The notes beneath the pieces are model-generated. The model was not told the origin of the DNA and did no database searches. It saw only the letters and a list, made by a program, of their open reading frames with translations. Below, one piece after another: positions 3,171 to 28,494 of a stretch of 64,000 nucleotides of DNA (positions are counted from its first letter, which is position 1; every line of letters begins with the position of its first letter). Position numbers and translations under genes: made by a program. The DNA lies in NCBI GenBank assembly GCA_020444065.1, contig JAHLLQ010000008.1:78138-142137 (forward strand), written 5' to 3'. The stretch comes from a bacterium. Its GTDB lineage: Bacteria > Sumerlaeota > Sumerlaeia > SLMS01 > JAHLLQ01.

Positions 3171-3180
3171 CAGGTTTCCC

Positions 3181-5471: not shown

Positions 5472-5501
5472 AAGGCACTGTCCGCAACGGGACAGTGCCT
5501 T
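5472..5501. terminator. Bidirectional intrinsic terminator between convergent genes
   Basis: AAGGCACTGTCC-gcaacg-GGACAGTGCCTT is a perfect 12-bp stem with T-rich flanks on both strands. Sits between 4976-5437 (+) and 5528-8614 (-). Confidence 0.8.
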
Positions 5502-5527
5502 GATTCCTGCTTGTTTGAACGTCTCGC

Positions 5528-8500
5528 TTACCGGGCGATCTTCAGGTCGTCCAGCCAGAGTGTACCTTCCTTTGGCACTGAGTGCCCATCTTCAAAGACG
5601 ATGAAGAACTGGGTCAGGCGGCTCCAGTCGGTAATCATGCCGCCGAACTGCGTGTACGGAATCGTGAAGTGGCGCCATTCGGTTTCGCTGAGCCCATTTA
5701 GCCGCGCAACGCCCACGCCGCCGGCACCGTGCAATTCGATCTTCAGGTCATTCGGCGTTCCCTTTGCCCAGAACTGAACGGAACGCGCGCCGGAAGCGTC
5801 GATGCCTTCGAGGTCGAACGTCGCCCCACCGAAGGCCAGGTTCGGCGAATCGACATCGTAGTCGATCCGCATCGCTCCGGTCATTGCGCCATCGCGTTGA
5901 ACTTTCTCCAACGAAACATTGAAGTTCACGGTATCGTCGGCCGCATCGCGCTTCCAGGTAACGAGTTGTCCGCCGAGTCGATTGCGCATCGGGTCGGTGC
6001 CTTCGAAGTCGTCGATCAGGATCGATTCAGGACCCGTTGCAGCGGACGCGCCCGGCAGAACCAGTGGACTTGTGTCGCGACGCTTCAGTTCTGCCAACCA
6101 GCCTTGATCGGCAGGCCATGTGAATTCATCGATGGCCGCAAGGCCCTTCTTCACGGTCGGATGGCTCTCGTACAGACGCTGGACAACACCGTCCTCGAGA
6201 ACATTCGCCAGCGAGAAGAAGAGCATTGTCTGGTCGAGGGCGGGCAGGTACTTGTCGCTGACCGCGCCGGTCGTGAGATCGATGCTGTCGCGGAAACCGA
6301 ACTCGCGCATTTCACCATCGATCATCATGGGATCGCGCGCGCCCATCTCTTCAAGCGTACGCAGCGACTCTGCGGCCTTCGCCGGATAATGCATCGCGGC
6401 CATTCCCGCTGCATGCGGTGTGACGACGTTTGCTTCCAGGCCACCCCATCCAAGGTACCGATCGTCCGGCGAGAACGACGCCGACCAGCCCCAGGCCGGC
6501 AGATCGAGCGTCTTCGCATAGAGCATCTGAGCGTACGCGAAGTTTGCCGTCGAGCGCCCGGCCGGCGTCATTTGCTCGTCGAGGAACAAGCCGTCCTGAC
6601 TTTGCATGAACAATCCGCCGCCCATCCATCCGGGGCCGTAGATCTTCAGATCGAAGTGTTCTTCGGTCTTCCGACCGAGATTCTTCCAACTCTCTGCGGG
6701 TGCGACACCGGAAGCGATTGCCCAGAAATGTGCAATGCGTCCGTCTCCGGCGTAATCGCCCACGTGCCAGCCGGGATCCATCTTCTCCGTCGTCATGTTG
6801 TAGCCGCCGTACAAGAGGCCGACGTTTTCATCGTAGAAGGCAGCCCAGTTCATGCCATTCACAATGCGCTCGACCTGCTCGCGCACTTCGGGCAGCGCTT
6901 GGGCCGCGACGACATAGCCCGCGACCATGTTGCCGGAATCGAGAACCGAAATCATTGGGTCGTGGAGCGCACGCTCTCGCGTGTGCACGTTATTCCAGCT
7001 TTCGGAGAAGCCGTTCCATTTCTCGAATTGCTCGTATGAGTCGAGCACGCGACGCACGCGATCGACGGCCTCATCATGGGTGATGTACCCAATCTCTGCG
7101 GCAATTGCACAACTCGCGGCGTAGTACCCAAGGTTCGTGACCGACGAGTAGTCGTCTCGAGTGCTCGTGTCGTAGGGAAGTCCCGTTTCCGGAGCGACGT
7201 AGAACGCGATGCAATCCCACGTGTCCTTCATGACGTCGCGCAAGTACGCCTCATCGTCTTCGGCGACTTGCGGCCATTCGACCTTCGGGCCGAATCCGGC
7301 GCGCTCGAGTCCGGCAGCGATCGCGGGGTGATTCATGAAGTTGTCCCAAACGAGTCCGCTGCGGGCGTTCTCGATGCACAGAATCATCGGACCGTGCGCG
7401 ATGCCAATGACCTGGTCCGAAACCCAACTCTGATCGATGATGAACGAATCCACGAAACCATAGCCACCGTCAGTCGGATCAATCCAGACAGGCTTGCCAT
7501 CGATGACCAGCCCCTTCATGTGGCGAAGAGCTGTGATTGCGTCCGCGGGCATGAACGGCACAGCCATTCCGGCCCCGTAAGGAGCGACAATTCCGCCGCA
7601 GGGATTGTCCCCGGCTTCGCCGCGGGGCTGATGACCGGGAACGGCATAGCTGTCATTCGGAGCAGAGCACGCCGTAATGCCCCAGCGATTCTGTCCATAC
7701 GTTGGGAAATCGCCAGCCATGGAACGACACCAATCGCGATTCGCGCGCGAAGCCATCGCCGTGTTGAAGAACCAGTCCGTACCACCGGGGTCCGGTCCCA
7801 TGCGCGAGAAGTCCGCGAAACACTGCGCGAATATGTAGGTAAACAGCGTGCTCGGCCAACTATACGTGTAATGCAAGTCGCCCAGATCGCCTTCGCGGCG
7901 AACCCAACTGGTCAGATTGCTCGCGGGCAGGCGGTGTTCTTCAATGGGAGCAGAGATTCCGACGATCGAAATCAGAAGCGCTTCATCCGTGTACCAATCC
8001 CACGTCTGCTTGTCGAACTTACCATTCTCCGTCATCTCCCCCCAAACCGCGGGGCGCCAGGCCATATAGACTTGGTTTCTCTCCGGATCCACCCAGGCCT
8101 TCCAATTCATCTCAGCGTAGATTTTGTCGGCCAGCATCCGCGCTTCGCCGCCGAAGTAATTACCGGCAGTGATCATTCCCGCTGCGAGAAGAGCCGTATC
8201 GATCGAGGAGACTTCGCTTTCATATCCCCCCATTGTTACGTTCCCGGTCTTCATGTCGACAAAGTGCGTGAAGATGCCCTCGTGGCGGGCGTTCGATTGA
8301 TCGAGTGCCCGAAGCGAACGCAGCACGCGATCCTCTGCAGCCTTGCGCGTGACCCAGCCGCGCTCCACCGCAACCGGATATGTGGCGAAGGCGAATCCCT
8401 GCGAGGCCACGCTGCAATCGTTGACGCCGGTCTTGTCGCGAACGAGACCGGTTACGGGATCGGCCTCTTGCCAGAAGAACTGAAATGCCGCGGAACTGAT

Positions 8501-8614
8501 TTCCTCCAGCAAGGCATCGTCCTCCGGAGAGAACTTCGAATCGGACTTCTTTGTCGATGGCGTTGCGCACGCACTCAGCAGTGCAATCAGGAGAAACAGG
8601 GGAAGAATCTTCAT
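5528..8614 (-). CDS. Lipoprotein with two (alpha/alpha)6 glucoamylase-like modules (N-terminal one GH144/PF10091-like endo-beta-1,2-glucanase type) and a C-terminal CBM11-like module
   Basis: 1028 aa with lipobox LLSAC. First module: FQFFWQEADPVTGLVRD...GYGFVDSFIIDQSWVSDQVIGIAHGPMILCIENARSGLVW (PF10091-type pattern). Second module: LPYDTSTRDDYSSVTNLGYY...FGFRDSIDL. C-terminus: ILIDDFEG...TLWLDDLKI. Confidence 0.6.
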   Translation of the reverse strand: MKILPLFLLIALLSACATPSTKKSDSKFSPEDDALLEEISSAAFQFFWQEADPVTGLVRDKTGVNDCSVASQGFAFATYPVAVERGWVTRKAAEDRVLRSLRALDQSNARHEGIFTHFVDMKTGNVTMGGYESEVSSIDTALLAAGMITAGNYFGGEARMLADKIYAEMNWKAWVDPERNQVYMAWRPAVWGEMTENGKFDKQTWDWYTDEALLISIVGISAPIEEHRLPASNLTSWVRREGDLGDLHYTYSWPSTLFTYIFAQCFADFSRMGPDPGGTDWFFNTAMASRANRDWCRSMAGDFPTYGQNRWGITACSAPNDSYAVPGHQPRGEAGDNPCGGIVAPYGAGMAVPFMPADAITALRHMKGLVIDGKPVWIDPTDGGYGFVDSFIIDQSWVSDQVIGIAHGPMILCIENARSGLVWDNFMNHPAIAAGLERAGFGPKVEWPQVAEDDEAYLRDVMKDTWDCIAFYVAPETGLPYDTSTRDDYSSVTNLGYYAASCAIAAEIGYITHDEAVDRVRRVLDSYEQFEKWNGFSESWNNVHTRERALHDPMISVLDSGNMVAGYVVAAQALPEVREQVERIVNGMNWAAFYDENVGLLYGGYNMTTEKMDPGWHVGDYAGDGRIAHFWAIASGVAPAESWKNLGRKTEEHFDLKIYGPGWMGGGLFMQSQDGLFLDEQMTPAGRSTANFAYAQMLYAKTLDLPAWGWSASFSPDDRYLGWGGLEANVVTPHAAGMAAMHYPAKAAESLRTLEEMGARDPMMIDGEMREFGFRDSIDLTTGAVSDKYLPALDQTMLFFSLANVLEDGVVQRLYESHPTVKKGLAAIDEFTWPADQGWLAELKRRDTSPLVLPGASAATGPESILIDDFEGTDPMRNRLGGQLVTWKRDAADDTVNFNVSLEKVQRDGAMTGAMRIDYDVDSPNLAFGGATFDLEGIDASGARSVQFWAKGTPNDLKIELHGAGGVGVARLNGLSETEWRHFTIPYTQFGGMITDWSRLTQFFIVFEDGHSVPKEGTLWLDDLKIAR

Positions 8615-10221
8615 GGTTCATCTTTCCGAGGTGTGGGATTGAATCGAACGTGAATGTAATCGCCCGTGCGGCCACGGCCGCGCGGATTTTCCACTCCTGC
8701 TGCGATCGAAACGATGCCACCGTTACCCGGGCCACGCAGAATGACCCGCCCTTTCCCATCGGCATCTGTTACGACATCAGCACCTTCTTCGTACCAGCCA
8801 TTGTGGAGGAATATCTCGACACGAACCTGCTGATTCACGATGGGAGTCCCTTCATTGTCCAGGACCTGAACATCGATCGGCAGATCGGAGCCGAAAAGTT
8901 CCGCACCGTCTTTGGGTGAAAGAACAGCAACTTGATAAGTAGGGACGGAGGCCGATTGTGGCCACACGCGGCATGTCTTCTCGCCGACGGGTTGGCCATC
9001 TGCATCGAGCCCGCGCGTTGCCAGGAGAACCGGATTCGTCGCTCCCTTCTCCATCTTCGCAGTGCCGCGCCACCAGTTTCCTGATCGATCGAGATCTCGC
9101 CAGGCCATCTTGTTTACACGATACTGCACCTGCGCCACATCTGGTCCCCAGACTTCGATGGGGAACTCTCCCTCGACGATCGCCTCGTCGTGCGGAGCCA
9201 CACGGATGGCTTGATTGTAATCTGCAAGCGCGTAGTACACTGGGCGCGGAGTCCCAACGTAGTCGGTCTCTGCCTCCAGCAGACCGTACCACTCCTCAGC
9301 ATGGTCGTTGTGGGTATCGGGATCGTCGCGCTTCCACCAACCATCGATCCACATGAACGCCGCTCCGCCCGTCGCGCCAGAGTTGATCACATCGTCCCAC
9401 AATGCCACGACACCATCGCGTTGCTGCTCGATCGAGTTACCGCCGTAACCGCGACCATCGCCGGTGGGGGAGACAGAGAGGCCGAACTCCGTGATCAGGA
9501 AGGGCTTGTTCGGCGCCAGATCGCGCTTCAACACCTCCAGGTAATGACGATAGCCGAGAGCGCGGCGAATCGTGTCAGGACTGTACGGATAGACATTCTG
9601 GCAGATCACCGGCCAGACATCGGGAGGCAGATAGTCGCCGAATACACAATTCGAGAAGCTGAACGGGCGCCCGGGATCCTCTTCACGAACAACCTCCGCA
9701 AGTCGACCGAAGTAGCTGGCGACGTTCGCCGTACCCGCGCGTTCCATGGCGTCGCCATGCGGTTCGTTCAGCATCAAGTACATCAGGATGTTCGGGTGTT
9801 CAGAGGAGCGCTCGATATTGATGCGCGTTTGCGAGAGTTCATGCTCTTGAAATGCCGGATCGGCGAAGTCGCCACCGGGATCGATCCAGTTCCCCTGGAT
9901 AACCCACAGGCCATACTCTGCGGCCATTTCGAGTTCCCAATCCTTCAGCGGACCCCATGTCCGAATCGTGTTGAAGCCCGCGGCGCGAATGCGCTCAAAA
10001 TCTGCCTGCAGGAGTTGCGGCTGATCGTCATGATCCCACGGAGCACGACCCGGTCGCGCGCCGATTTCGTAGCCCACGGCTACTACCAGAAACCGCTCTC
10101 CATCCACCGTCAGCCAATCGCCATCGATCCCCACCTGGCCGAAGGGAGAGGCACTTTCCGTTGGCGCCGAGGCACAACTCAAGAGTGTCGCTGCGAGAAC
10201 AGCGAGGAATAATGACCGCAT
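8611..10221 (-). CDS. Clan GH-A (beta/alpha)8 glycoside hydrolase lipoprotein (GH5-like / GH2-TIM-like) with C-terminal Ig-like domain
   Basis: 536 aa with signal/lipobox TLLSC. Motifs: FNTIRTWGP, LMLNEPHGD (acid/base NEP), FLITEFGLS (nucleophile), EEWYGLL. ATGA overlap with the downstream gene at 8611-8614. Confidence 0.55.
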   Translation of the reverse strand: MRSLFLAVLAATLLSCASAPTESASPFGQVGIDGDWLTVDGERFLVVAVGYEIGARPGRAPWDHDDQPQLLQADFERIRAAGFNTIRTWGPLKDWELEMAAEYGLWVIQGNWIDPGGDFADPAFQEHELSQTRINIERSSEHPNILMYLMLNEPHGDAMERAGTANVASYFGRLAEVVREEDPGRPFSFSNCVFGDYLPPDVWPVICQNVYPYSPDTIRRALGYRHYLEVLKRDLAPNKPFLITEFGLSVSPTGDGRGYGGNSIEQQRDGVVALWDDVINSGATGGAAFMWIDGWWKRDDPDTHNDHAEEWYGLLEAETDYVGTPRPVYYALADYNQAIRVAPHDEAIVEGEFPIEVWGPDVAQVQYRVNKMAWRDLDRSGNWWRGTAKMEKGATNPVLLATRGLDADGQPVGEKTCRVWPQSASVPTYQVAVLSPKDGAELFGSDLPIDVQVLDNEGTPIVNQQVRVEIFLHNGWYEEGADVVTDADGKGRVILRGPGNGGIVSIAAGVENPRGRGRTGDYIHVRFNPTPRKDEP

Positions 10222-10230
10222 TTGTTTGCC

Positions 10231-10809
10231 TCAAGGTCCGAAGCGATAGATGTTGCCGTCGCTGACCGTACCGTTTGTTGCGTCGTATATCGTCGAAATG
10301 CCCAGGAAGAAATTGTCCGAATCCAGATCCGGCCCCCACGACCAGATCACGTACTGCACAGCCGCGCCGGAACCCGAAGTCACATCCACGAGATCGAACC
10401 CGACACTCGGTTCGCTCCAGAACTCGAAGTAATCCCATCCGTATCCCAGAGGATTCCGCATGTTGTACGGATCGCGCGGGCAACTCGTCAGGTAACTGAT
10501 TGGCGTCGTCAGTCGCGCTGTGTAGGCGAAGTAGCCCCCGCCGATATCATTGAACGGACTGCCCGGAAACTGGGCCGGAAGTTCCTGGCTCAGCGGATAG
10601 TGATTGTTGTCGACGTGATAGCTTTCGACGGCGGTTGCGATTGTGCGCGCATCGGCCTTGATGCGCGAGATCTTCGAGCGTGTCTGCGCTTCCAGAAAAT
10701 TCGGCACGGCAATCGCCGCCAGAATCGCAATAATCGCAACAACGATCAGCAATTCGATCAGCGTGAATCCCATCCCTCTCTTGTGTTTCCTACGGAAAAT
10801 CCTCTTCAT
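10231..10809 (-). CDS. GspG/PulG-like pseudopilin (prepilin-type N-terminal cleavage/methylation domain protein), copy 1
   Basis: ORF 10231-10872 trimmed to the ATG at 10809 (MKRIFRRKHKRGMG|FTLIELLIVVAIIAILAAIAVPNF). Has G-1/F+1/E+5. C-terminus: SWGPDLDSD...YDATNGTVSDGNIYRFGP. Its ATG overlaps the LacI stop (ATGA). Confidence 0.85.
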   Translation of the reverse strand: MKRIFRRKHKRGMGFTLIELLIVVAIIAILAAIAVPNFLEAQTRSKISRIKADARTIATAVESYHVDNNHYPLSQELPAQFPGSPFNDIGGGYFAYTARLTTPISYLTSCPRDPYNMRNPLGYGWDYFEFWSEPSVGFDLVDVTSGSGAAVQYVIWSWGPDLDSDNFFLGISTIYDATNGTVSDGNIYRFGP

Positions 10810-11885
10810 GTTTCGTTCCTTTTCTTCCTCCGCGAATTGCCGTTCAAGTCTCTCGGATCCGGGCAGCCACAAGACTCGCGCGGAACCAGTTGAGCTTTCA
10901 TGATGGTTTTGAATGGGCGCGTGCGCTGACCGGAAATGCGCTCGATCAACATCTCGACGGCTAGAGCGCCAATTTCGCGCAACGGCACGCGCACCGTCGT
11001 CAGGCTAGGTCGTGTCAGGCGAGCCATGCGCGAATCATCGTAGCCAACCACGGCGACGTCATTCGGCACTTCAATACCCGCGCGGGCAAAGGCATCGATG
11101 ACACCCTTCGCCAAGTCATCGTTCGCCGCCACGATTCCCCAATGGCCATCGCGCGATTTTACGCGTTTGGCCAGGTCGCGACCCACTTCATAGCCTGCAT
11201 CGTAATCGTAGTCCGTGTAAACGAACTGATCGTCTTGTGGCGGAATCCCGGCGCTCCGCAGCGCATCGCGGAATCCATCAGCGCGGTCTCGCGTGTCGAT
11301 GTTCAGTTCAGGCCCGCCCAGGAAGATCAAGTCCGTCCGTGCGTGGGCTTTCAGCAGATGATTTGTCATGTCCCGCGCGCCCGTCTTGTTATCCACGAGG
11401 ATGTTGTCGAGGTGGTAGTGACCAACATCTTTGTCGAGGATCACAATCGGCGCAGCCAGGTCGCTCAACATTTCGAGTGTCCGATCGGCGATTTCGGGAA
11501 TCATCAGCACCAATCCATCAACGCGGCCACCCTGCAGGAACTGTTCGGCTGCATTGTGTTCTTCGCGCTCGCCCTGAGCGCGAGTAACCATGAGATGCAG
11601 GCCCTCCTGGCGGGCGCGATCGTCCACGCCTCGCATCAATTCGCCGAAGTAATCGCCGAAGAGATCTGGCAGGATCAGGCCGAGCGTTTCCGAACGTTTG
11701 CGGCTCAGAGCACGCGCGCGGATGTTTGGCTTGTAGTTCAACCGCCGCATCGCGGCCTCAACTCGGTGACGGGTCTTCTCCGCCACGCGACTGGGGCCGT
11801 TCACGACGCGCGAAACTGTCGCGATCGAGACATTCGCCTCACGCGCCACGTCGTGAATCGATGGGCCTTTGCCTAGGGCTGTCAT
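10806..11885 (-). CDS. LacI-family transcriptional regulator
   Basis: 359 aa. HTH: SIHDVAREANVSIATVSRVVNG...YKPNIRARALS. Periplasmic-binding-protein-like effector domain. ATGA overlaps at both ends (11882-11885 and 10806-10809). Confidence 0.9.
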   Translation of the reverse strand: MTALGKGPSIHDVAREANVSIATVSRVVNGPSRVAEKTRHRVEAAMRRLNYKPNIRARALSRKRSETLGLILPDLFGDYFGELMRGVDDRARQEGLHLMVTRAQGEREEHNAAEQFLQGGRVDGLVLMIPEIADRTLEMLSDLAAPIVILDKDVGHYHLDNILVDNKTGARDMTNHLLKAHARTDLIFLGGPELNIDTRDRADGFRDALRSAGIPPQDDQFVYTDYDYDAGYEVGRDLAKRVKSRDGHWGIVAANDDLAKGVIDAFARAGIEVPNDVAVVGYDDSRMARLTRPSLTTVRVPLREIGALAVEMLIERISGQRTRPFKTIMKAQLVPRESCGCPDPRDLNGNSRRKKRNET

Positions 11886-14311
11886 TGTCTTGCTCCCGGG
11901 GATACGGGGCGCCGTGCACGCACCAGAACCTTGCGCACGCGCTTCTCGCCACTTGCCGCGATTGGCTGGCCCGCATCGTGAAGTTCACCATCCACTTCGA
12001 TCTCCCAATCTCCCGATCCAGAGCCCTCGAAAGTGATCTCGAACAGATCGCCACGGAACGGGCGCGTAATCTGCGCCGATTCCCATTCAGCCGGCAAGCA
12101 CGGTGCCACGCGCAAGCCATCATACTCCGGACGAACGCCCAGAATCCACTCCAAACAAATCCGACGCAACCATGCCGCCGAACCAGTGTACCAGGTCCAT
12201 CCGCCTCGGCCGAATCCTGGCGACTCGGGGCCTTCGATATTGCCCGGCGTGACATACGGCTCCACCGCGTAGTGATCCGGCTTGCGGCCACGATTGGGTG
12301 GAGCCAGTCGGCTAAATGCACTCCATGCCGTTTCGGCGCGACCGAGCTTGCACGCCGCCTGGATTGCCCAGATCGCCGCATGCGTGTAGACGCCGCCGTT
12401 TTCTCGCACCGCCGGGGCGTAACGCGTCAAGTAACCCACGCGCGCGTCCGGAGTCGAGTACGCCGGTGTGAAGAGCAGCGGCCCGTACTCCCGCAGCAAA
12501 TGCTCCTCAGCCGCATCCAGCACCTGGTTCGCGCGCTCTTCGTCCGCAGTTCCACTGATGATCGACCACGTCTGCGCGTTCAGGAAGATGCGACCTTCCT
12601 TGCACGATGCGCTGCCGAGAGGCGAACCATCATCCAGAGTCGCCCGCAGATACCAGTCGCCATCCCATCCGTGCGTATTGATCGCCACGCGCAGAGCGTC
12701 GGCTCGTGCCGTCCATTCCGCGGCACGCTCCGATTCGCCGCGCTGCGTCGCCAAGTCGGACCAGTCGCAAAGAACTCCGTACAGGAAGTGCCCGAGCCAA
12801 ATCGACTCGCCCTTGCCGTGCATGCCAGCCGCACTCAGTCCGTCGTTCCAGTCGCCTTCGCCGATCAGCGGCAATCCGCGATCGCTGAAACGCACCAGCA
12901 CACGCTCGATCGCGCGCACGCCGTGCTCCCAAATCGTCACGGCATTATCGTCATCGACGAATGGTTCCGCAAGATCGAGCGCATCGAAGTCGGCCGTTTC
13001 CTTTAGGTACGAGATCATGACAAACGGCAACCACAACAGATCGTCCGTCATTTCGGTGCGCAGGCCAACTTCACTCAGCGGATGCCACCAGTGATAGACT
13101 GTTCCATCCGCGAATTGATGACGCGCGTGCAGGCGAAGCTGCTTCAGGCAACGCGCGGGATCGCTGGGCAGGAAGACCTGGCTGTCCTGCAACTGATCGC
13201 GGAATCCGAATGCACCGGATTGCTGCCAATACCCCGTGCGCCCCCAAAGGCGCGCCGCGATAGCCTGATACATCAACCATGTGTTGTTGAGCAGATTGAA
13301 TGCCGGGTCGGGCGTCTCGACGTGCACGGCTTCGAGCTTCTCCGCCCAGGCCTTCTCGACATCGGCCAGCACGCGATCCATCGCGTTGGTATCGCTGAAT
13401 GGCTCAAGCGCCTCGCGCGGCGAACCGTTCTCTTCCACGGCGCCCAGCGCGAACATCAGGTCGGTCGCTTCCTTCGGCGCCAGTTCGATCGTCGCTGCAA
13501 GAGCCGCGATGCCGTCCGTCAATCGACCGAAGCCGCCGGATTCGCGCTCATCCGCGCCCAGCCAAGCCGGTGCGGAGAAGTCGCCGTGACGGCCGAGGAA
13601 GTACTGATGATCTCCAGCGCCGGCAACGGATGCCGGAACGCCTGCGCCCGGCTGCCAGACTGCGTGGAAAGCGACGTGTGGCCAGTTCGTATTCCAGTGC
13701 CCGTACTTCTCGTCGGGAACTTCCCACAGGCACTTGCGCGCCGTAATCAGACCATCTTCGTAGGCGCTGTCGATAAAGAGTCGATGAAACTCGCGCTTCG
13801 AGTCCGGGGCGGCGCCCAGGCACCACATGAAGTGCGAACAGACAGAAATCTTGCGGGGTTTGACCCCGAGATTCCGAATGCGAACGCGCCACAGTTCCAT
13901 CGCGGCATCAGTTGGAACGGTGATCGTCCATTCCACTTCGATACCATGTGCCTGCGTCGTGATGACCGTATAACCAATGCCGTGGCGGCATTCGTAGTGA
14001 TCCAGCTTCGCGCGAGTCGGCTGCGGCGCGGCGCTCCAGAGCTCTCCCGTTTCTTCGTCCTTCAGATATAGCCACTTGCCCCACGCATCGCGCACCAGGT
14101 CCATCTCCCAGCGCGTCAGTACGCCGAGGGTCGAGTGATCCAGCCACGAGAAACCGCCACCAGCCTGACTGATCGTTGCACCGTAGCGCTCGTTCGCAAT
14201 CACATTCACCCACGGCTTTGGGGTATCGGGACGCGTGATCACATACTCGCGCCCATTGTCGGAGAAGTAGCCGTACTTGCACTCAAAGCGATCGTTCGTC
14301 ACGTCAATCAT
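11882..14311 (-). CDS. GH94 glycoside phosphorylase (cellobiose/cellodextrin/chitobiose/laminaribiose phosphorylase family), copy 1
   Basis: 809 aa with no signal peptide. N-terminus: YGYFSDNGREYVITRPDTPKPWVNVIANE...AGGGFSW. Also GEGDWNDGLSAAGMHGKGESIWLGHF, typical of the cellobiose phosphorylase family. Confidence 0.85.
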   Translation of the reverse strand: MIDVTNDRFECKYGYFSDNGREYVITRPDTPKPWVNVIANERYGATISQAGGGFSWLDHSTLGVLTRWEMDLVRDAWGKWLYLKDEETGELWSAAPQPTRAKLDHYECRHGIGYTVITTQAHGIEVEWTITVPTDAAMELWRVRIRNLGVKPRKISVCSHFMWCLGAAPDSKREFHRLFIDSAYEDGLITARKCLWEVPDEKYGHWNTNWPHVAFHAVWQPGAGVPASVAGAGDHQYFLGRHGDFSAPAWLGADERESGGFGRLTDGIAALAATIELAPKEATDLMFALGAVEENGSPREALEPFSDTNAMDRVLADVEKAWAEKLEAVHVETPDPAFNLLNNTWLMYQAIAARLWGRTGYWQQSGAFGFRDQLQDSQVFLPSDPARCLKQLRLHARHQFADGTVYHWWHPLSEVGLRTEMTDDLLWLPFVMISYLKETADFDALDLAEPFVDDDNAVTIWEHGVRAIERVLVRFSDRGLPLIGEGDWNDGLSAAGMHGKGESIWLGHFLYGVLCDWSDLATQRGESERAAEWTARADALRVAINTHGWDGDWYLRATLDDGSPLGSASCKEGRIFLNAQTWSIISGTADEERANQVLDAAEEHLLREYGPLLFTPAYSTPDARVGYLTRYAPAVRENGGVYTHAAIWAIQAACKLGRAETAWSAFSRLAPPNRGRKPDHYAVEPYVTPGNIEGPESPGFGRGGWTWYTGSAAWLRRICLEWILGVRPEYDGLRVAPCLPAEWESAQITRPFRGDLFEITFEGSGSGDWEIEVDGELHDAGQPIAASGEKRVRKVLVRARRPVSPGARQ

Positions 14312-14335: not shown

Positions 14336-15163
14336 TCAGCCCTTCAAGCCAGTCATGGTAACGCCCTCGATGAAGCGTCGTTGCAGTACCAGGAAGACTA
14401 TAGCGATCGGCAGAATCGTCACCGCGGCGCCCGCCATCAGCAGGCCCCATTCGGCGTTGTGCTGGCCGCTCAGATTCGCCAGCGCCACTGGCAGCGTGTA
14501 CATCGATTCCTTCTGCATCACGATCAACGGCATCATGAAGTCGCTCCACACAGCCGTGAACGTAAAGATAGCAAGCGCGGCAATCACCGGCCGGCACAGC
14601 GGCAGAACGATCTGCGCGAAGATCCGGAATTCGCCGCATCCATCGATTCGCGCCGACTCGATGTAGGCATCAGGAACGGAGATCATGAACTGGCGCATCA
14701 GGAAGATCCCAAATACCGATGCAGCGCCCGGTACGATCAATCCCAGGTAATTGTTCAGCAATCCCAGGGACTTCAGAAGCAGGAAGACCGGGATCAAGGT
14801 CACCTGTGCCGGCACCATCAATGTAATGATCATCAAGGCGAACATCGGTCCGCGCAGCGGGAAGTCGAACTTTGCAAACGCGTAGCCGCCCATCGCATTC
14901 ATGAACAAGCTGACGAATGTCACGGCCAGCGTCACCAGCACCGAGTTGAAGAACATCCGTCCGAACGCCATGCGATCGAAGAGCTCATCGTAATGCAACC
15001 ACGTGACCTCGCGGGGAATCCACTCTGGCGGGAACGTGTTGATCGCCTCGACCGTCTTGACCGATGTTGTCAGCGTCCAGACAAACGGCATCACGGCCGC
15101 GACGAAGAGAAGCAGCAGAAGGAACAGGATGACCGCGCGTTCAGTGATCTGGCGAGCGTTCAT
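14336..15163 (-). CDS. Carbohydrate ABC transporter permease (MalG-type, CUT1)
   Basis: ORF 14336-15226 trimmed to the ATG at 15163 (MNARQITERAVILFLLL). Six predicted TM segments and the EAA-type loop ESARIDGCGEFRIFAQIVLPLCRP. One-nt TGATG overlap with the upstream gene. Confidence 0.85.
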   Translation of the reverse strand: MNARQITERAVILFLLLLLFVAAVMPFVWTLTTSVKTVEAINTFPPEWIPREVTWLHYDELFDRMAFGRMFFNSVLVTLAVTFVSLFMNAMGGYAFAKFDFPLRGPMFALMIITLMVPAQVTLIPVFLLLKSLGLLNNYLGLIVPGAASVFGIFLMRQFMISVPDAYIESARIDGCGEFRIFAQIVLPLCRPVIAALAIFTFTAVWSDFMMPLIVMQKESMYTLPVALANLSGQHNAEWGLLMAGAAVTILPIAIVFLVLQRRFIEGVTMTGLKG

Positions 15164-17400
15164 CAGTTCTCCTCCCCGCGCACCCAGCGCATCTGGAAGA
15201 CGCTCAGCACCGCAATCATCACGCACAGCGTATAGGCAATCGCTGACGCGTAGCCGAGATGGAAGAACTTGAAGCCTTCCTTGTAGAGATAAAGCACAAT
15301 AGACAGAGTGCGATTCTGCGGCCCGCCCATGTCAGTCATGACGTACGGCTCGGCGAAGAATTGCATGTAGCCGATCGTTGTGATGATCATGATAAAGACG
15401 GTGGTCGGGCGCAGAAGCGGCAGCGTCACGTTGCGGAATTGCTGCCAACGATTCGCGCCGTCGATCGAAGCGGCCTCGTAGAGCTGGCTTGGGATCGACT
15501 GCAGGCCCGCCAGGAAGATCACCATGCTGTAGCCGAAGTTCTTCCAGATCGCCAAGACGATCAGCGCCGGCAACGCCAGGAGTGGATCCGCCAGCCACTC
15601 CTGCTCGGGAATTCCGACCAACCCCAATCCCCAATTGAGAAGGCCGAACTGCGGCGAGTAGATCCAACGCCATACGACTGCCACAGCCACGAGCGGCGTT
15701 ACGACCGGCAGGAAGAAGCCCGTGCGGAACAGCCCGCGAATCGGCGTCACCTTGCTGTTCAAGAGAATCGCCGCCCCGAGCGCCAGAACGATCGTGAGCG
15801 GTCCCGCCACGATCATGAAGTATCCCGTGTTTAGGACAGACCGCCAGAACAGCGGATCCTGCAGCAGGCGGATGTAGTTCTCGAACCCAACGATTGAAGT
15901 CCGGTGCCAATCGGCGATCGCATAGATGTCGTAGTTCGTGAAGCTCAAAAGGAGGGACGCAGTAATCGGCAGCAGAATGAACAGCGTGAAGTGCAGTAGT
16001 ACCGGAATCAGGAAGACCGCCGGGATTCTGCATCGCTGCAACACATTCTTCTCGTGGCGCAGCTTCCAGGCGATCATCCCGACGAGTATCAGGAGGACCA
16101 GAATTCCGCCGCCGATTACTGTTCCCATCCAATCCTGCACGTTCCCTGGACCGACGCGACGGCGCGAGAGAATCCCCTTCATTCCCTCCTCGATGCGTGT
16201 CGCCGTCGTTTCCGGGCTCACGTCGCCCAGGATCATGTTCTCCATCTCGTTCTTGATGACTTCCGCCATCGCTTCCCACGTTTCCAGCGGCGGAGTCGCC
16301 CGGGCATCCCCCAACTGCCGACGGAAGACGCTCCACGTTGGGCTCTGCGCGAATTCCGGCGCATCCCACGCCACCTTGGCTGCAGGCAGATCGCCGGTGA
16401 TCTTGTACCAATCGATCTGCGTGCGTGGCTGCGAAAGGTACTCGACAAAAGCCCACGCCAGCTCCGGATTCTGTGACGACTTGAAGATCGCCAGGTTGGA
16501 GCCGCCGAGGAACGACGTGCGCGTCTTGCGTCCTGGCAACATGGCTACGGCCCATCGCCCCTCCAGGTCCGGGGCCTTGCGCTGATACTCTCCCACCATC
16601 CAAGGGCCGGTGATCCAGGCTGCGAAGTAGCCGTCGCGGAAGGCCTGGATCGGATCGATCTGTCCGGACACCGCCTCTGTGGAGTAGCCGCGATCGAAAA
16701 TCGATTTGTAGAATGCCATCGCCTCGATCGTCTCCGGCGAAGCGAAGATGCACTCCTTCATGTCATCGCTCATCGCGCGTCCGCCGTTTTGCCAGATGAA
16801 GTCCAGCAGCAAGCCTTCCTCGCGGGCCGAGAAATTGAACGCGTACTGATCCGTGCGACCGTCGCCGTCTTTGTCGCGGGTCAGATCCGCGCCAAATTGC
16901 TCCAACTCATCCCAAGTTTCAGGGAAGCGATCCCAGCCCGCCTCGGCGGCCAGATCCGTCCGATAGAACATCACCCGCGTATCGACGTACCAGGGCAGTG
17001 CGTAGAGCCCGCCCTCCCACTTGCCGGTGCGCAGGGACTGCTCAAAGAAGGCGTCGTTTCCGAGGCTGTCCGAGTTCTCGACCGGGCGGGCGAGGTTTCG
17101 CAGGGCTCCCATGGCGGCGAACTCCGGAACCCAGGTCGTGCCAAGCTGGGTCACATCCGGGGCGATCCCGCCCGCCACGGCCGTGATCAGCCGGTCGTGG
17201 GCGCCTCCCCAGGGCACCGCCTGGGTGTTGATGGTCGTGCCCGGATGATCCTCTTCGAAGGCCCGGGCGAGCTTGGGCAGGTGTGTTCCCTCGGCCCCCA
17301 TCGCCCAGACGGTGATCTCGCCGGACAGTTCGGCGGAGCTTGTCCCGGCGAGGCCGAGAACAAGCAGAAGACCGAGAATTGGCAGGAAAGATCGCTTCAA
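15163..17400 (-). CDS. Fusion protein: extracellular solute-binding protein (family 1, sugar) + extra TM helix + MalF-type ABC permease
   Basis: 745 aa with a TTG start and signal peptide MKRSFLPILGLLLVLGLAGTSSA. Residues ~24-412 are SBP-like (ITVWAMG...AVPWGG...YALPWYVDTRVMFYR). Residues ~425-445 are a TM helix (MGTVIGGGILVLLILVGMIAW). Residues ~455-745 are a permease with EAASIDGANRWQQFRNVTLPLLRP. Confidence 0.8.
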   Translation of the reverse strand: MKRSFLPILGLLLVLGLAGTSSAELSGEITVWAMGAEGTHLPKLARAFEEDHPGTTINTQAVPWGGAHDRLITAVAGGIAPDVTQLGTTWVPEFAAMGALRNLARPVENSDSLGNDAFFEQSLRTGKWEGGLYALPWYVDTRVMFYRTDLAAEAGWDRFPETWDELEQFGADLTRDKDGDGRTDQYAFNFSAREEGLLLDFIWQNGGRAMSDDMKECIFASPETIEAMAFYKSIFDRGYSTEAVSGQIDPIQAFRDGYFAAWITGPWMVGEYQRKAPDLEGRWAVAMLPGRKTRTSFLGGSNLAIFKSSQNPELAWAFVEYLSQPRTQIDWYKITGDLPAAKVAWDAPEFAQSPTWSVFRRQLGDARATPPLETWEAMAEVIKNEMENMILGDVSPETTATRIEEGMKGILSRRRVGPGNVQDWMGTVIGGGILVLLILVGMIAWKLRHEKNVLQRCRIPAVFLIPVLLHFTLFILLPITASLLLSFTNYDIYAIADWHRTSIVGFENYIRLLQDPLFWRSVLNTGYFMIVAGPLTIVLALGAAILLNSKVTPIRGLFRTGFFLPVVTPLVAVAVVWRWIYSPQFGLLNWGLGLVGIPEQEWLADPLLALPALIVLAIWKNFGYSMVIFLAGLQSIPSQLYEAASIDGANRWQQFRNVTLPLLRPTTVFIMIITTIGYMQFFAEPYVMTDMGGPQNRTLSIVLYLYKEGFKFFHLGYASAIAYTLCVMIAVLSVFQMRWVRGEEN

Positions 17401-17425: not shown

Positions 17426-17439
17426 TGAAAACGTTTTCA
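17426..17439. promoter_or_regulatory. Candidate LacI-family operator O1: TGAAAACGTTTTCA
   Basis: Perfect 14-bp palindrome with a central CG, 26 nt upstream of the TTG start at 17400. On the minus strand a TTGACC -35-like hexamer lies just upstream. Confidence 0.65.
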
Positions 17440-17619
17440 TAAACAATGCGTCGCAGGTCAAGAGGAAATCTTTTCATCGCCGAAAATCTTGATTCTACTG
17501 GAAATGCCAATATAAATAAGGGTTTTAGGAGAAATTGGCGCGCACCCCAAAATCGACCAGATCGCAAAAAACGAGTTGACAACGCGCGGCATTTAGACCG
17601 ATTCAGTGGCGCAGATGGT

Positions 17620-17633
17620 TGAAAACGTTTTCA
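17620..17633. promoter_or_regulatory. Candidate LacI-family operator O2: TGAAAACGTTTTCA
   Basis: Identical 14-bp palindrome, 48 nt upstream of the ATG at 17682 and ~40 nt downstream of a TTGACA hexamer (~17575). Confidence 0.65.
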
Positions 17634-17681
17634 GGTTTTCATTCCAATCCCAACACATCTTTCCCTGGAGGGCCCTCCAAT

Positions 17682-19388
17682 ATGAACGGAAAGCATTTGC
17701 TCCTCGCGGCTGGGGTGACGCTGCTCGCCGGCGCTGCCTCTGCCCAGTCAACAATCGCCGAAAACTACGAAACCCACAACTGGGTCCAGTGGTTCGGCGA
17801 CGCCCCCGTCGTGGGTTACGATGGCACCCACACCACCGAGGGCAGTTCTGCCCTGCACCTGCAATTCAACCCCGCCTCCGGACTGGCCGCAGTGAAGACC
17901 AGCGAGTTTTTGCCGGAAGTCGGCACTGGGCTCAGCACCGGCTTCACGGCCGACGTCTACGTCTCCGGCGGCACGAGCGGCGTGCCGATGTTCAAGCTCG
18001 AAATGAATGGGGAATCCGGCTCGGCCGAATCCGGCGCGGACACTGCGCTCACGCTTGATTCCTGGACGCAGGTCACGATCCCGTCGGGCAATGTCGTCGA
18101 GAACTACAAAGAGTTCCGCCTGATTATTCCGGATAATGGCGCGACCGGCGTGTTCGACATCTGGGTCGACAACATTCAGCGCGAAGGCGCCCTGTGGGAT
18201 GGTTTCGAGCAGGACAACAGCTCGTCCGTCGTCCCGGCGAATGTCGATGGGTTTGCCCGCGGCGATGCAACCGTCGGCGGTTCCGTTCTGACAAGCGCCG
18301 GCCCAGCGCCCACCGAAGGCAGCCTGCTGTGGGCGATGGAATTCAGCGGCGATTCGAACGGCGACGTTGAAATCCAACACTTCTACTCCACGCCGCTCGA
18401 TCTCAGTGGCTACGACGACATCGCGTTCGATCTCTACATCCCGAGCGGCACGACCCTTCCGGTCGCCAGCGCCTTCTTCTGGGATGGCGCTGCCGGTTCC
18501 TTCCACACTGGCCCGACGATCTCGGCCAACGATGCATGGGAAACTGTTTCGCTCGACATCACCGGGCTGGTTCCGGCTGGTGACGAGGCCTCGATCGACG
18601 AACTCAAGATCGTCCTCGGCGGCATCGGCGCGGCCGGCAAGGTCTTCCTCGACAACACGGTCTACACGAACTCGGTTCCGGTCGTGAATTCGATCGTTCG
18701 CGACGACGTGACGCCGACGAGCGCATCGTCCGTGACCTTCACGGTCAGCTTTGACGAGTACGTCAATGGCGTCGATTCCACCGACTTCGCATTCGCGGCG
18801 GGCGCGCCGACCGGCGCCTCCGTCACCAATGTCGATCCCGCCGCCGGCCCTGCCCAGGTCTACACGGTAACTGTCGATACCGGCACGGGCGATGGCGATC
18901 TCGGCTTGAATGTTGTCGATGACGACACGATTCAGGATCTCTCCGGCCTGGCGCTCGGCGGTACCGGCACGGGCAATGGCGATTTCACGGGTGAAGTCTA
19001 CGCCATCGACAAGGCGGCTCCGGGTCTTGCCTCCGGCGGACTTGCTCCCGACAGTGGACAAGCAGATCCGACCGATACGCTTCCCGTTCTCTTTACTGTG
19101 CTGTTCGACGAACCGGTCAATGGCTTCGACGAGAACGCAATCGACTTCACAGGATCGACAGAGGCTGGCTCTCTGAGCGCGGTCGTTACGCTGTCAACAC
19201 GCGGCGAGACTGGACCGTACACGGTTTCGGTCAGTGGCGCGACGGTCGAGGGCGACATCGTTATCGGCATCGTCGATGGGCTCCTGACGGACGATGCGGG
19301 CAACGCGTTCAATTCCGGCGGAGCCACGGCATCAGTTCATTACAATCCCCTGGCCGGGGTAAATGACTGGATGCAGTTCGAATACTAA
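17682..19388 (+). CDS. Secreted protein: two CBM11-like modules followed by two Ig-like (adhesin-type) domains
   Basis: ORF 17619-19388 trimmed to the ATG at 17682 (MNGKHLLLAAGVTLLAGAASA, GGAGGG SD). CBM-like module end VFDIWVDNIQREGALWDGFE. C-terminal Ig-like repeats: SVTFTVSFDEYVNGVDSTDF..., LFTVLFDEPVNGFDENAIDF.... Confidence 0.55.
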   Translation: MNGKHLLLAAGVTLLAGAASAQSTIAENYETHNWVQWFGDAPVVGYDGTHTTEGSSALHLQFNPASGLAAVKTSEFLPEVGTGLSTGFTADVYVSGGTSGVPMFKLEMNGESGSAESGADTALTLDSWTQVTIPSGNVVENYKEFRLIIPDNGATGVFDIWVDNIQREGALWDGFEQDNSSSVVPANVDGFARGDATVGGSVLTSAGPAPTEGSLLWAMEFSGDSNGDVEIQHFYSTPLDLSGYDDIAFDLYIPSGTTLPVASAFFWDGAAGSFHTGPTISANDAWETVSLDITGLVPAGDEASIDELKIVLGGIGAAGKVFLDNTVYTNSVPVVNSIVRDDVTPTSASSVTFTVSFDEYVNGVDSTDFAFAAGAPTGASVTNVDPAAGPAQVYTVTVDTGTGDGDLGLNVVDDDTIQDLSGLALGGTGTGNGDFTGEVYAIDKAAPGLASGGLAPDSGQADPTDTLPVLFTVLFDEPVNGFDENAIDFTGSTEAGSLSAVVTLSTRGETGPYTVSVSGATVEGDIVIGIVDGLLTDDAGNAFNSGGATASVHYNPLAGVNDWMQFEY

Positions 19389-19410
19389 TACTTCCATCCA
19401 CCGGCTATCG

Positions 19411-19451
19411 GCGGCGGGGGAGGATGCGCCTCGCGGCACCTCTCCCGCCGC
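19411..19451 (+). promoter_or_regulatory. Intercistronic GC-rich stem-loop with no U-tract
   Basis: GCGGCGGGGGAGG-(15 nt)-CCTCTCCCGCCGC forms a 13-bp stem with one G.U pair. Lies in the only long (92-nt) gap of the plus-strand operon. Confidence 0.6.
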
Positions 19452-19480
19452 TGAACCGCCAATTCGAAGAAGGAGAAATC

Positions 19481-20854
19481 ATGCGGTTCCTGAAACTTCT
19501 TGCAGCAATCCTTGTGTTCGCGTCGGTTGCCTCATTCGCTTCGGCCGAATGGGTCACTTGGGAGGACTTCAATACGCGTCCCTGGTCGCTGGAACCATGG
19601 CCTATCACCGAAGGATCTCAGATTTCCTTCGACAATCACATGGCTATCTCCGGCTCGACATCCTTGCGCACAACAATCAACGTTGTTGGATGGGGTGGCG
19701 GATTGACGCTGCGCAGCGCACCGATTCTACCTCCGCCCAAGCAGGGACTCACCGTCGCCATTCGCTGCGAGGCGCAGCCGGGAGCAACCGGTGTTCCGAA
19801 TGCGAAGTTTGAGGTCTACTCTCCCGATGGCGGCCCAGCAATGGGCAGCCCCGACACGCCATTGAAGGTCGGCGATTGGACGACGATTCGCCTTCCCGCC
19901 AGCGTTGTCACGAAGGAATGGTCAGGTTGTGGTGTCATCTTCCTGGAAGGCACCGCTAAGGGGAGTTTCAAGATCTGGGTAGATGCAATCACTCTCGATG
20001 GGAAGGTCTGGGAAGACTTTGAGTATAACGGCGGCTTCAATCCTTGGTTCGCCGCGAACATCAACGGTGCATACCGGATGGGCGTCGTAGGATCCGAGTA
20101 CAAGCGCGCCCCGGATCTGGGCAATGGCACGGCGATGTCGCTTGCATGGACCGGCGATACCGACGGCGCTGAACTGAAGACTCGTTTCGAATCGCCAAAG
20201 GACATCAGCGGCTGGAAGCGCATCCGCGTTCGCGTCGCCGTTCCCTCCGATTCCGTTTCTCCCCGCGTCAGCCTTTGGATGTGGGATGGATCGGAAGGCA
20301 GTCTGGCCGTCGGAGATCCCGTGATCCCCACTGGCGATTGGGTGGATCGAGTATTCGATGTTCCGGCAGCGGCTGGCGCCGTGAACCTCCACCATGTCGT
20401 TGATTTTGGACTCGTCTTTCACGAGTACCCGGGCAGCAGCGGCGAAGTCATCGTGGATCGAATCGACGTGGATGGAATTCCCGCGTCCGCGACTCGTTCT
20501 TCGACGCGCGCCAGCGATGGCAAGCCGCAGTGGAGCGCCTACGAACCCAACATGGTGATGCAGGCCGCAAAGACCGAAGGCAAGGCCGTCGTCTACGTTC
20601 GTTCCGCGAAGACGGATCGTTGTCGCGAGTTCGAGAAATCAGTCCTGCAGAATCCCCAGATCGCGAAGGTCCTGGCCGGCATGCCACTGGCCTATCTGAA
20701 TGTGGACTCGCCGGAGAACACGCGCCTCTCTGCTGAGATTGGAGTCGTGCGTGTTCCCGCGCTTGTCATCATCGAAGGCGAGAACAAAGCTCGTCAACTC
20801 GTCGTCGACACCAACACCAGCAATGACGAAGTGATCGCGTTTCTCGCCAACTAA
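19481..20854 (+). CDS. Secreted protein: two CBM11-like modules + C-terminal thioredoxin-fold domain lacking CxxC
   Basis: ORF 19424-20854 trimmed to the ATG at 19481 (MRFLKLLAAILVFASVASFASA, AGGAG SD). SFKIWVDAITLDGKVWEDFE parallels the upstream paralog. C-terminus: KAVVYVRSAKTDRCREFEKSV...VRVPALVIIEG (Trx-like, single Cys). Confidence 0.5.
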   Translation: MRFLKLLAAILVFASVASFASAEWVTWEDFNTRPWSLEPWPITEGSQISFDNHMAISGSTSLRTTINVVGWGGGLTLRSAPILPPPKQGLTVAIRCEAQPGATGVPNAKFEVYSPDGGPAMGSPDTPLKVGDWTTIRLPASVVTKEWSGCGVIFLEGTAKGSFKIWVDAITLDGKVWEDFEYNGGFNPWFAANINGAYRMGVVGSEYKRAPDLGNGTAMSLAWTGDTDGAELKTRFESPKDISGWKRIRVRVAVPSDSVSPRVSLWMWDGSEGSLAVGDPVIPTGDWVDRVFDVPAAAGAVNLHHVVDFGLVFHEYPGSSGEVIVDRIDVDGIPASATRSSTRASDGKPQWSAYEPNMVMQAAKTEGKAVVYVRSAKTDRCREFEKSVLQNPQIAKVLAGMPLAYLNVDSPENTRLSAEIGVVRVPALVIIEGENKARQLVVDTNTSNDEVIAFLAN

Positions 20855-20884
20855 TCCCAACGTTCTCAATCCTCGGAGTTCCCC

Positions 20885-23794: not shown

Positions 23795-23827
23795 GGCTGA
23801 GTGGAATCTATCAGGGGCAGGTGTACA

Positions 23828-24358
23828 ATGCAGAGTTTGGGCAACAAAAACAGTGGTTTCACCTTGATCGAATTATTAATCGTCGTCGCGATCATTGCAA
23901 TTCTTGCGGCGATTGCCGTTCCGAATTTCCTCGAAGCACAAACGCGGGCGAAGACCTCACGCATCAAGGCGGATGTCAGAACTCTCGCGACGGCGATGGA
24001 GTCTTATCGGGTGACCTTCAACAGGTACCCGCCAGATGCAGGACACGGGGCCCCGCCCTACAGCGGAGTCGAGAGCCTGATCCCGCTTTCGACCCCCGTA
24101 TCCTTCATCACGTCGATTCCGCGCGATCCGTTTCAGGAAGTCGACAACTCATCGTACTTCGGCTACTACTTCTACGTGCATGATCCGGATCTGCGACAGT
24201 TGCCCGCTTCCGAAAATGGAACGCGCTTCTACTGGATTCTGTTCTCGGTCGGTCCCGATCGCGATTCCGATCAGCTCGACTTCTTCCCCGTCACGCACAA
24301 CTACGATCCGACAAACGGCACAATCAGCGACGGAGACATCGGACGGTGGGGGCCATGA
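23828..24358 (+). CDS. GspG/PulG-like pseudopilin (prepilin-type N-terminal cleavage/methylation domain protein), copy 2
   Basis: ORF 23801-24358 trimmed to the ATG at 23828 (MQSLGNKNSG|FTLIELLIVVAIIAILAAIAVPNF). C-terminus: SVGPDRDSD...YDPTNGTISDGDIGRWGP. Its stop overlaps the next ATG (ATGA at 24355-24358). Confidence 0.85.
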   Translation: MQSLGNKNSGFTLIELLIVVAIIAILAAIAVPNFLEAQTRAKTSRIKADVRTLATAMESYRVTFNRYPPDAGHGAPPYSGVESLIPLSTPVSFITSIPRDPFQEVDNSSYFGYYFYVHDPDLRQLPASENGTRFYWILFSVGPDRDSDQLDFFPVTHNYDPTNGTISDGDIGRWGP

Positions 24359-28490: not shown

Positions 28491-28494
28491 CAGA

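Follow-up and report, generated by a model that had tools for sequence, protein, structure and literature searches.

A GspG-like pseudopilin gene kept within a probable beta-1,2-glucan utilisation operon of Candidatus Sumerlaeota

In the Klebsiella pullulanase secreton, pulA is encoded with pulC-O under the regulator MalT, with the whole machine at the locus and one PulG, and the lipidated hydrolase must cross the outer membrane. In type IVb pili, including those of Vibrio cholerae (TcpF/TcpB) and enterotoxigenic Escherichia coli (ETEC; CofJ/CofB), a co-encoded soluble exported protein leaves through the machine by binding to a pilin. Expanded prepilin families of obscure function are found in Planctomycetes, Verrucomicrobia and Lentisphaerae (DUF1559, which is PF07596; the H-X9-DG family TIGR04294; and the Verru_Chthon cassettes), and in the bindosome of Sulfolobus it is sugar-binding proteins that carry class III signals. 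Here we analyse a pseudopilin gene in a stretch of 64,000 nucleotides (positions 78,138 to 142,137 of contig JAHLLQ010000008.1, assembly GCA_020444065.1; called the window, to which coordinates refer unless another locus is named), which protein and genome searches place in the uncultured phylum Candidatus Sumerlaeota (BRC1). The gene, at 10231..10809 on the minus strand, encodes a prepilin-type, GspG-like pseudopilin of 192 aa (178 aa when mature, with one cysteine), referred to below as the pilin. An original prediction had taken it for an integral cistron of a LacI-type glycan operon, possibly serving either glycan capture or the display or secretion of hydrolases. The comparison of related loci gives good support to two statements: that the pilin is an integral cistron of its operon, and that it is co-inherited with an exported glucanase gene of the glycoside hydrolase (GH) family GH144 type.

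Set beside the Klebsiella secreton, the locus is similar in having a pseudopilin that, as predicted from the genes, a sugar regulator induces along with an exported, lipidated glycan hydrolase, and dissimilar in that the operon contains a single pseudopilin paralogue, any machine presumably being encoded elsewhere. The resemblance to TcpF/TcpB and CofJ/CofB is that an exported protein is encoded beside the pilin, and the ETEC type IVb pilus is also the top full-length fold match; those systems differ in using a tip minor pilin from a complete pilus operon of a pathogen, with no enzyme cargo and no paralogue expansion. With the prepilin families of the Planctomycetes-Verrucomicrobia-Chlamydiae (PVC) phyla the pilin shares the pattern of dozens of scattered genes per genome with no adjoining machinery, but it has another head domain and a C-terminal motif of its own, Y-D-x-T-N-G-T-x-S-x-G. 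The bindosome, which the original prediction had offered as an analogy, likewise has a class III signal on a protein associated with sugar uptake; we rejected that reading, since the pilin is without a binding-protein fold, and the solute-binding protein (SBP) of the locus has an ordinary Sec-type signal (ending in SSA, with E the next residue) and is fused to a permease. Pilin expression tied to polysaccharide degradation, with the genes near glucan-degradation loci, is described for Caldicellulosiruptor bescii (bioRxiv 10.1101/614800) and Ruminococcus (PMC3672088); these cellulolytic Firmicutes differ in being monoderm, in having complete pilus loci, and in that the pilin does not lie between a repressor and a hydrolase.

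The translation opens with a basic class III leader of 14 residues (10768..10809, minus strand; MKRIFRRKHKRGMG) whose last residue is Gly-1, and the mature protein starts FTLIELLIVVAIIAILAAIAVPNF, reading FTLIE after the cleavage site, with the F+1 codon at 10767-10765 and the E+5 codon at 10755-10753. PF07963 (N_methyl) matches it at 9e-6, and TIGR02532 (IV_pilin_GFxxxE) scores 28.5 against a cut-off of 16.3. The C-terminus reads ...SWGPDLDSD...YDATNGTVSDGNIYRFGP, and the open reading frame (ORF) ends in SWGPDLDSDNFFLGISTIYDATNGTVSDGNIYRFGP. The ATG (10809-10807) shares an ATGA with the stop of the LacI-family gene (10808-10806) and has a purine-rich AAGGA about 10 nt 5' of it; the stop (10233-10231) is followed, after a gap of 9 nt, by the ATG (10221) of the gene for a signal-peptide and lipobox protein of 536 aa. 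The translation and coordinates thus agree with the original prediction as to the prepilin ORF, its G-1/F+1/E+5 site, the overlap and the gap. Codon-usage log-odds per codon are 0.21 for the pilin, 0.20 for LacI and 0.21 for the downstream GH; the plus-strand shadow ORF opposite the pilin is longer, yet its codon-usage score is negative. Gene calls come from a codon-usage caller with best-suffix starts that reproduced the database gene calls, three earlier home-made callers having been dropped for shadow ORFs and lost genes. The class III signal motif occurs just 2 times in the six-frame translation of the window, each time in an ORF that matches the hidden Markov model (HMM) of the family (1.6e-74 and 2e-63), and it is therefore no chance match. 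Judged on its sequence, this is shown to be a genuine prepilin-type gene, one that very probably belongs to the GspG lineage.

The AlphaFold2 model of the pilin (predicted local distance difference test, pLDDT, 88.7) has a 52-residue helix (17-68), a long loop region and a small three-strand sheet. Foldseek with this full-length model finds pilins and pseudopilins only, in weak, helix-dominated matches. With the head modelled alone (pLDDT 74), the ten best matches are EpsG/GspG, at probabilities of 0.87-0.96, template modelling (TM) scores of 0.52-0.60 and E = 0.03-0.08. A head profile against the PDB finds GspG and Geopilin chains only, the best being 2kep (E = 1.6e-4), with the match confined to the alpha1C 'Y..DN..YP' signature; in a PDB sequence search with the entire pilin, the N-terminal helix alone matched. 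The globular part had been predicted to resemble GspG/PulG, and that stands as to which proteins head the results, at fold scores that are weak. TIGR01710 (GspG) gives the pilin 54.3 against a cut-off of 88.85, over residues 14-85 only, and PF08334 (T2SSG) gives 20.2 bits, just below its cut-off of 21, which some longer relatives in the family exceed at about 38 bits; the matches of the pilin to both models are confined to its N-terminal 70-85 residues. ComGC is among the weak NCBIfam matches. Neither PF07596 nor TIGR04294 matches the pilin at E <= 0.01, a Pfam scan finds no solute-binding-protein domain in it, and the Pfam scan and the PDB profile search detect no known carbohydrate-binding module (CBM). 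In P0227, a protein of 2330 aa, the head seemed to match an 11-fold repeat, which was rejected as an artefact of immunoglobulin (Ig) repeats.

The pilin is like GspG, PulG, EpsG and XcpT from the T2SS (type II secretion system) in its class III signal with G-1, F+1, E+5 and P22, and like GspG in its alpha1C signature 'K..D...l..AL..Y..DN..YP', in having no disulfide, and in its best fold and profile matches. It is unlike GspG in having some 40-60 more residues and insertions in the head, in falling under the TIGR01710 and PF08334 cut-offs, in lying outside a gsp operon and within a catabolic one, and in having tens of paralogues per genome. A type IV filament subunit of the major-pseudopilin (GspG) lineage is well supported by the profiles and the model, and we file the pilin as a divergent pseudopilin of that lineage, not as a GspG orthologue.

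The operon, which we call operon 1, runs from 17400 to 5528 on the minus strand in the order SBP-permease, permease, GH94, LacI, pilin, GH2-like, GH144-like. Membership of the pilin is supported by the ATGA overlap with LacI, the 9-nt gap downstream, the lone terminator at the end of the operon, and the flanking operators described below. That terminator-like element, from a hairpin search, is at 5472..5501 (minus strand), 27 nt past the GH144-like gene, with a 12-bp stem; there is no comparable hairpin inside operon 1, and this sole strong one follows the last gene. A Pfam scan of every sizeable ORF in the 64 kb finds no secretin, no assembly ATPase (T2SSE), no platform protein (T2SSF), no prepilin peptidase, and no SusC/D or TonB-dependent receptor. 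With these absences, all foreseen in the original prediction, and with the synteny that follows, the placement of the gene in a LacI-type glycan operon and outside any pil or gsp cluster holds.

The GH144-locus orthologue of the pilin is present in 8 of the 8 lineages with context: the window, L001, L002/L128, L005/L092, L007, L173, L174 and L175. It lies directly 5' of an exported GH in 7 of the 8. The gene order of the window is repeated in L175/176 (pilin 66% identical), and it recurs minus the GH2-like gene in L001 (66%) and L007 (57%). L005/L092 (53%) and L174 (50%) have LacI-pilin-GH144, L173 (54%) has the pilin-GH144 pair alone with a 4-nt overlap, and in L002/L128 (58%) the pilin is relocated upstream of GH94, still within the locus. 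Across the lineages, identity to the window is 46-62% for the pilin head, 47-59% for LacI, 50-61% for the GH144 domain and 60-65% for GH94. By neighbour joining the orthologues form one clade with 90 other paralogues outside it, in keeping with the earlier view that the gene is dedicated to the locus. One clade member, P0019 (49%), is elsewhere, in a three-pilin tandem and not near any glycan gene; the tandem, at 10001-12055 of L008, consists of three family pilin genes, of which P0019 is the first. The original prediction had allowed that orthologous loci might lack the pseudopilin, and they keep it in all eight lineages. No family member is in any of 80 GH94 loci from other phyla, and only two Sumerlaeota loci carry one; the GH94/GH144 loci of Omnitrophota, Planctomycetia and others are without the pilin gene. 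As read from these loci, the pilin was added to a widespread operon in this lineage alone and has stayed stably fixed there.

Operon 1 is very probably for beta-1,2-glucan utilisation, the substrate specificity being taken from the relatives of its GH144 and GH94 proteins and from the pairing of GH94 with GH144 across phyla. The last gene (5528..8614, minus strand) encodes an exported lipobox protein of 1028 aa, whose N-half matches the endo-beta-1,2-glucanases 5gzh (1.9e-34) and 8xul (2e-38) in the PDB, and whose C-half resembles the middle, cyclase-type domain of cyclic beta-1,2-glucan synthase (8wy1; 8rf9 residues 1228-1492). The GH144-like and synthase-like parts are separate genes in other lineages, or a GH144 of about 460 aa stands alone. 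By Pfam and PDB relatives, the gene at 11882..14311 (minus strand) encodes a cytoplasmic GH94 phosphorylase, which scores 520 bits to the GH94 domain of cyclic beta-1,2-glucan synthase versus 384 to cellobiose phosphorylase; of 80 homologous loci, drawn from many phyla, about 60 have GH94 and GH144 together. The LacI-family repressor gene is at 10806..11885 (minus strand). Between the pilin and the GH144-like gene, at 8611..10221 (minus strand), lies the gene for the exported 536-aa protein, which has a lipobox and a TIM barrel of the GH2 type and is found at this place in the window and L175/176 only; among solved structures it is closest to 9fz9 (230 bits), an uncharacterised 'GH2 catalytic domain protein', and there is a weak match to GH158. 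The first gene of the operon by Pfam (15163..17400, minus strand) encodes the 745-aa SBP fused to an ATP-binding cassette (ABC) permease, and an ABC permease subunit of uncertain start follows at 14336..15226 (minus strand). The SBP-permease fusion is conserved in the orthologous Sumerlaeota loci, single long SBP-permease matches also occur in some loci of Clostridia and Elusimicrobia (L115, L127), and an ABC ATPase gene is absent from operon 1.

Upstream of operon 1, by 26 nt, is a perfect 14-bp palindrome of the LacI/CcpA operator type, TGAAAACGTTTTCA (17426..17439), and an identical palindrome at 17620..17633 stands at the head of a divergent operon 2. The sequence TGAAAACGTTTTCA has exactly two copies in the 64 kb, which bracket the 218-bp divergent promoter region; they were spotted by eye and then confirmed with a pattern search, an inverted-repeat tool having found nothing in the divergent intergenic region. 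The exact operator is not in other loci, and a degenerate form is in L005/L092 only, at a position in L005 equivalent to that in the window. Identical operators before both operons suggest one LacI regulon. Operon 2 (17619..31137, plus strand, from Pfam and codon-usage gene calls) has the order two exported unknowns, an F5/8-type-C protein (969 aa), a second pilin, an exported 599-aa unknown, GH94 and GH2, and this order recurs in L089. The second pilin (23828..24358, plus strand), overlooked in the original prediction, is a paralogue identified by the family HMM; it has 176 aa and is 48% identical to the first (heads 40%). Its TGA stop overlaps the ATG (24355) of the exported 599-aa protein as ATGA at 24355-24358; an orthologue of this pilin (66%) is again overlap-coupled to the 599-aa protein, and the pairing is kept in L089 and L172. 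Both pilin genes are thus in what looks like a single LacI regulon. The second GH94 (782 aa; 26142..28490, plus strand) came from codon-usage gene calling and had been masked in longest-ORF calling by minus-strand shadow ORFs; the GH2 gene, from Pfam, is at 28495..31137 (plus strand). The exported proteins of operon 2 (about 570-589, 476 and 599 aa; 17619-20854 and 24346-26145, plus strand) match no Pfam family and no PDB sequence, and these three unknowns are candidates for new glycan-active or glycan-binding families.

The two pilins of the window belong to a much larger set. At least 8000 database proteins match the pilin, and at least 578 family stretches were confirmed in species-representative genomes, nearly all of these being Sumerlaeota metagenome-assembled genomes (MAGs), with several loci per genome. 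Members were found with the HMM, since strict pattern matching to the prepilin motif had missed many. In 1.2 Mb of DNA flanking 80 family loci there are 14 further copies, about 1 per 86 kb, which by rough estimate would make tens of copies per genome. This suggests a large Sumerlaeota-specific family with roughly tens of paralogues in each genome. An identical 28-residue mature N-terminus is found in 39 of 60 members, as expected if all fit one filament core; the C-terminal motif Y-[DN]-x-[TS]-N-G-[TI]-x-S-x-G is in 56 of the 60, and half of the family members have no cysteine, like GspG. A search with the head domain gives 327 clusters (50% identity) at E <= 1e-3 and a single one at E <= 1e-30, which is that of the orthologues of this gene. 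A family-wide link to carbohydrate-active enzymes (CAZymes) was sought among about 80 paralogue loci and not found. Most copies are scattered, the downstream neighbours of 81 paralogues fall in 122 different Pfam families (MreB, LpxK, PTA and others), each at most twice, a LacI homologue is nearby in about 5 of 80 family loci, and a sugar ABC system in about 4 of 80. The original prediction had held that such scatter without CAZyme enrichment would make the association incidental; the scatter is there for the family as a whole, but the synteny of the clade still makes the link of this pilin to its glucan operon non-incidental.

What the paralogues do have in common is an exported neighbour. 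Among co-directional genes at most 150 nt downstream of a family member, 22 of 39 have signal-peptide-like N-termini, and control genes of those loci have them in 128 of 503 cases (odds ratio 3.8, p = 1.1e-4). Among the orthologues of the operon 1 pilin, the gene just 3' always has an exported product, with a Sec-type signal, a lipobox, or, in L173 (3602-3750), the twin-arginine (Tat)-like signal SRRQLFK on the GH144 orthologue directly after the pilin. The export route of the partner varies in this way between lineages while the pilin-GH144 pairing persists. Family-wide the partners are diverse and mostly without a Pfam match, a minority being glycan-related (GHL10, CBM4_9, CBM11, BNR, F5/8C). 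Diverse, mostly non-CAZyme partners fit better with pilins that deal with proteins than with a common glycan ligand.

Filament machinery stands next to a family member in L087, where 258-10600 encodes two unknowns, T2SSE with an MshEN domain, T2SSF, a 169-aa protein, a secretin, a tetratricopeptide repeat (TPR) protein, a PilT-like ATPase and a family pilin. PilB/PilT-like (T2SSE) genes are also 3 kb from the orthologous locus in L005. LpxK together with the secretin indicates a diderm envelope.

Our preferred reading, to which we give a probability of roughly 40%, is that the pilin is a cargo-coupled, substrate-inducible pseudopilin that helps the glucanase to be secreted or displayed on the cell surface. 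Beta-1,2-gluco-oligosaccharides would lift LacI repression, and the prepilin would be made alongside the Sec/Tat-exported glucanases. A prepilin peptidase encoded elsewhere would cleave it, and the mature pilin would enter the pseudopilus of a secretin-containing type IV filament machine, also encoded elsewhere in the genome. There the clade-specific head may link the co-encoded enzyme or enzymes to the machine, to be pushed through the secretin or displayed on the surface. The polymer would be cut extracellularly, and oligosaccharides would enter via the ABC system for GH94 phosphorolysis. One machine would accept the paralogues as alternative subunits, each of them expressed together with an exported partner of its own. 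Secretion or display is preferred because the family-wide signal is the exported neighbour and not glycan, and because Sec/Tat-exported hydrolases are the classical cargo of the T2SS. The pair of functions proposed originally, glycan capture or hydrolase display and secretion, was the right set to consider, and the family-wide data favour a protein-partner over a lectin role.

Several points weigh against this reading. In the classical T2SS it is the minor pseudopilins at the tip, GspC and the secretin that recognise the cargo, and major-pseudopilin variants do not, so the adaptor role proposed here would be without direct precedent. The signal-peptide comparison was made with a crude home-made predictor and gene caller. 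Peptidase_A24 is found neither in the window nor in the scanned relative loci, there is no prepilin peptidase within 20 kb of the L087 cluster, and none is beside the pilus ATPases in L012. The PilT-like ATPase in L087 implies a retractile pilus rather than a pure secreton. In L002, GH94 and LacI lie between the orthologue and GH144. Finally, the aromatic stretch GWDYFEFW, conserved across the clade in the pilin head, could equally be a sugar-binding platform.

That last point leads to the alternative that survives best, which we consider unlikely but worth keeping in view: an inducible pilin in surface pili or pseudopili, whose head binds beta-1,2-glucan and tethers the polymer or the cell near the lipoprotein glucanases. 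Besides the aromatic-rich head segment, the conservation of the pilin gene in the glycan operon and its co-regulation with it are what this would predict, both paralogues of the window are inside glycan operons, and polysaccharide-regulated or carbohydrate-binding type IV pili are known in cellulolytic Firmicutes (bioRxiv 10.1101/614800; PMC3672088). Set against it are the position of most family members, which are not near CAZymes or sugar transporters, the fact that the strongest conserved trait is the exported-protein neighbour and not glycan function generally, and the lack of any known CBM among the searches made on the pilin.

It is decidedly improbable that the class III signal merely anchors a small periplasmic domain in the inner membrane, the product being a non-polymerising chaperone or scaffold for the exported enzyme. 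Tens of scattered paralogues with no adjacent machinery, paired with exported partners, would suit such a role, and archaeal class III signal peptides also serve non-pilus proteins, as in Sulfolobus. E+5 and the near-invariant 28-residue helix across paralogues and genomes argue the other way, as these are expected for filament packing and needless for a simple anchor, and one paralogue adjoins a complete machine, that of L087.

More doubtful still is a retractile pseudopilus that draws glucan through a secretin into the periplasm for the exported glucanases, in substitution for SusC/D-type import, for which the competence pili of DNA uptake are the model. The PilT-like retraction ATPase and secretin next to the family member in L087, the absence of TonB-dependent or SusC/D genes from the window, the ComGC match, and glucanase signals compatible with the periplasm would all be consistent with it. 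It is nonetheless pure analogy: equivalent loci of other phyla that have no SusC/D have no pilin either, the lipobox enzymes could equally face outward, and the many paralogues coupled to non-glycan partners would be left unexplained. A pilin of 178 residues cannot by itself be an outer-membrane channel, and the replacement of SusC/D or TonB receptors that the original prediction raised is unsupported and is not required by the comparative data.

A chance operon position for one of many scattered pilins, with no role in glucan use, is very improbable, as the size of the family, mostly without CAZyme links, and the pilin-free homologous loci of other phyla are outweighed by an orthologous clade kept in the locus in all eight lineages despite rearrangements and about 50% sequence divergence, as conserved as the enzymes and with start/stop overlaps retained.

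Returning to the preferred reading of a cargo-coupled pseudopilin, a wider version of it, in our estimate a long shot, would give Sumerlaeota one secretin-containing retractile machine as a modular port, with dozens of interchangeable pseudopilins each having an exported partner; here the glucan-specific pilin would export the glucanase or reel beta-1,2-glucan into the periplasm.

Elsewhere in the window, a protein of 1237 aa in which a Ser/Thr protein kinase and a long TPR array are fused (48724-52437, minus strand) adjoins an exported protein with Ig-like domains and a GH13 alpha-amylase (46710-48263), which is without a pilin neighbour. A catalase-peroxidase with a divergent LysR regulator (54806-58051) and cytochrome bd oxidase subunits I/II (61389-63844) suggest oxygen tolerance in this Sumerlaeota lineage.

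The building blocks of this system are already known, namely pseudopilins, T2SS-secreted glycanases and the expanded prepilin families of PVC phyla. Searches of the available literature find no description of this family, nor of a pseudopilin fixed in a glycan-utilisation operon, and a published Sumerlaeota genome analysis records genes for type IV pili in every MAG and does not mention the family. Current annotations label such genes no more closely than 'prepilin-type N-terminal cleavage/methylation domain protein' or 'GspG'; genome-based metabolic reconstructions leave them out. The gene neighbourhoods suggest an undescribed link between pilus-type machines and glycan use. How diderms outside Bacteroidota and Proteobacteria, including candidate phyla like Sumerlaeota, move polymers or polymer-cutting enzymes across the outer membrane is not known, and a pseudopilin that is stable and co-regulated in a glycan operon, with paralogues preferentially before exported proteins, is a concrete handle on that question. 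Should a shared type IV filament machine take up the pilin as a module specific to a cargo or substrate, polysaccharide utilisation loci would gain a new component class, and T2SS and type IV pilus biology a new principle, that of specificity through swappable major-type subunits. If the machine is indeed a modular port, Sumerlaeota would have a way to acquire glycans by pilus instead of by SusC/D- or TonB-dependent systems.

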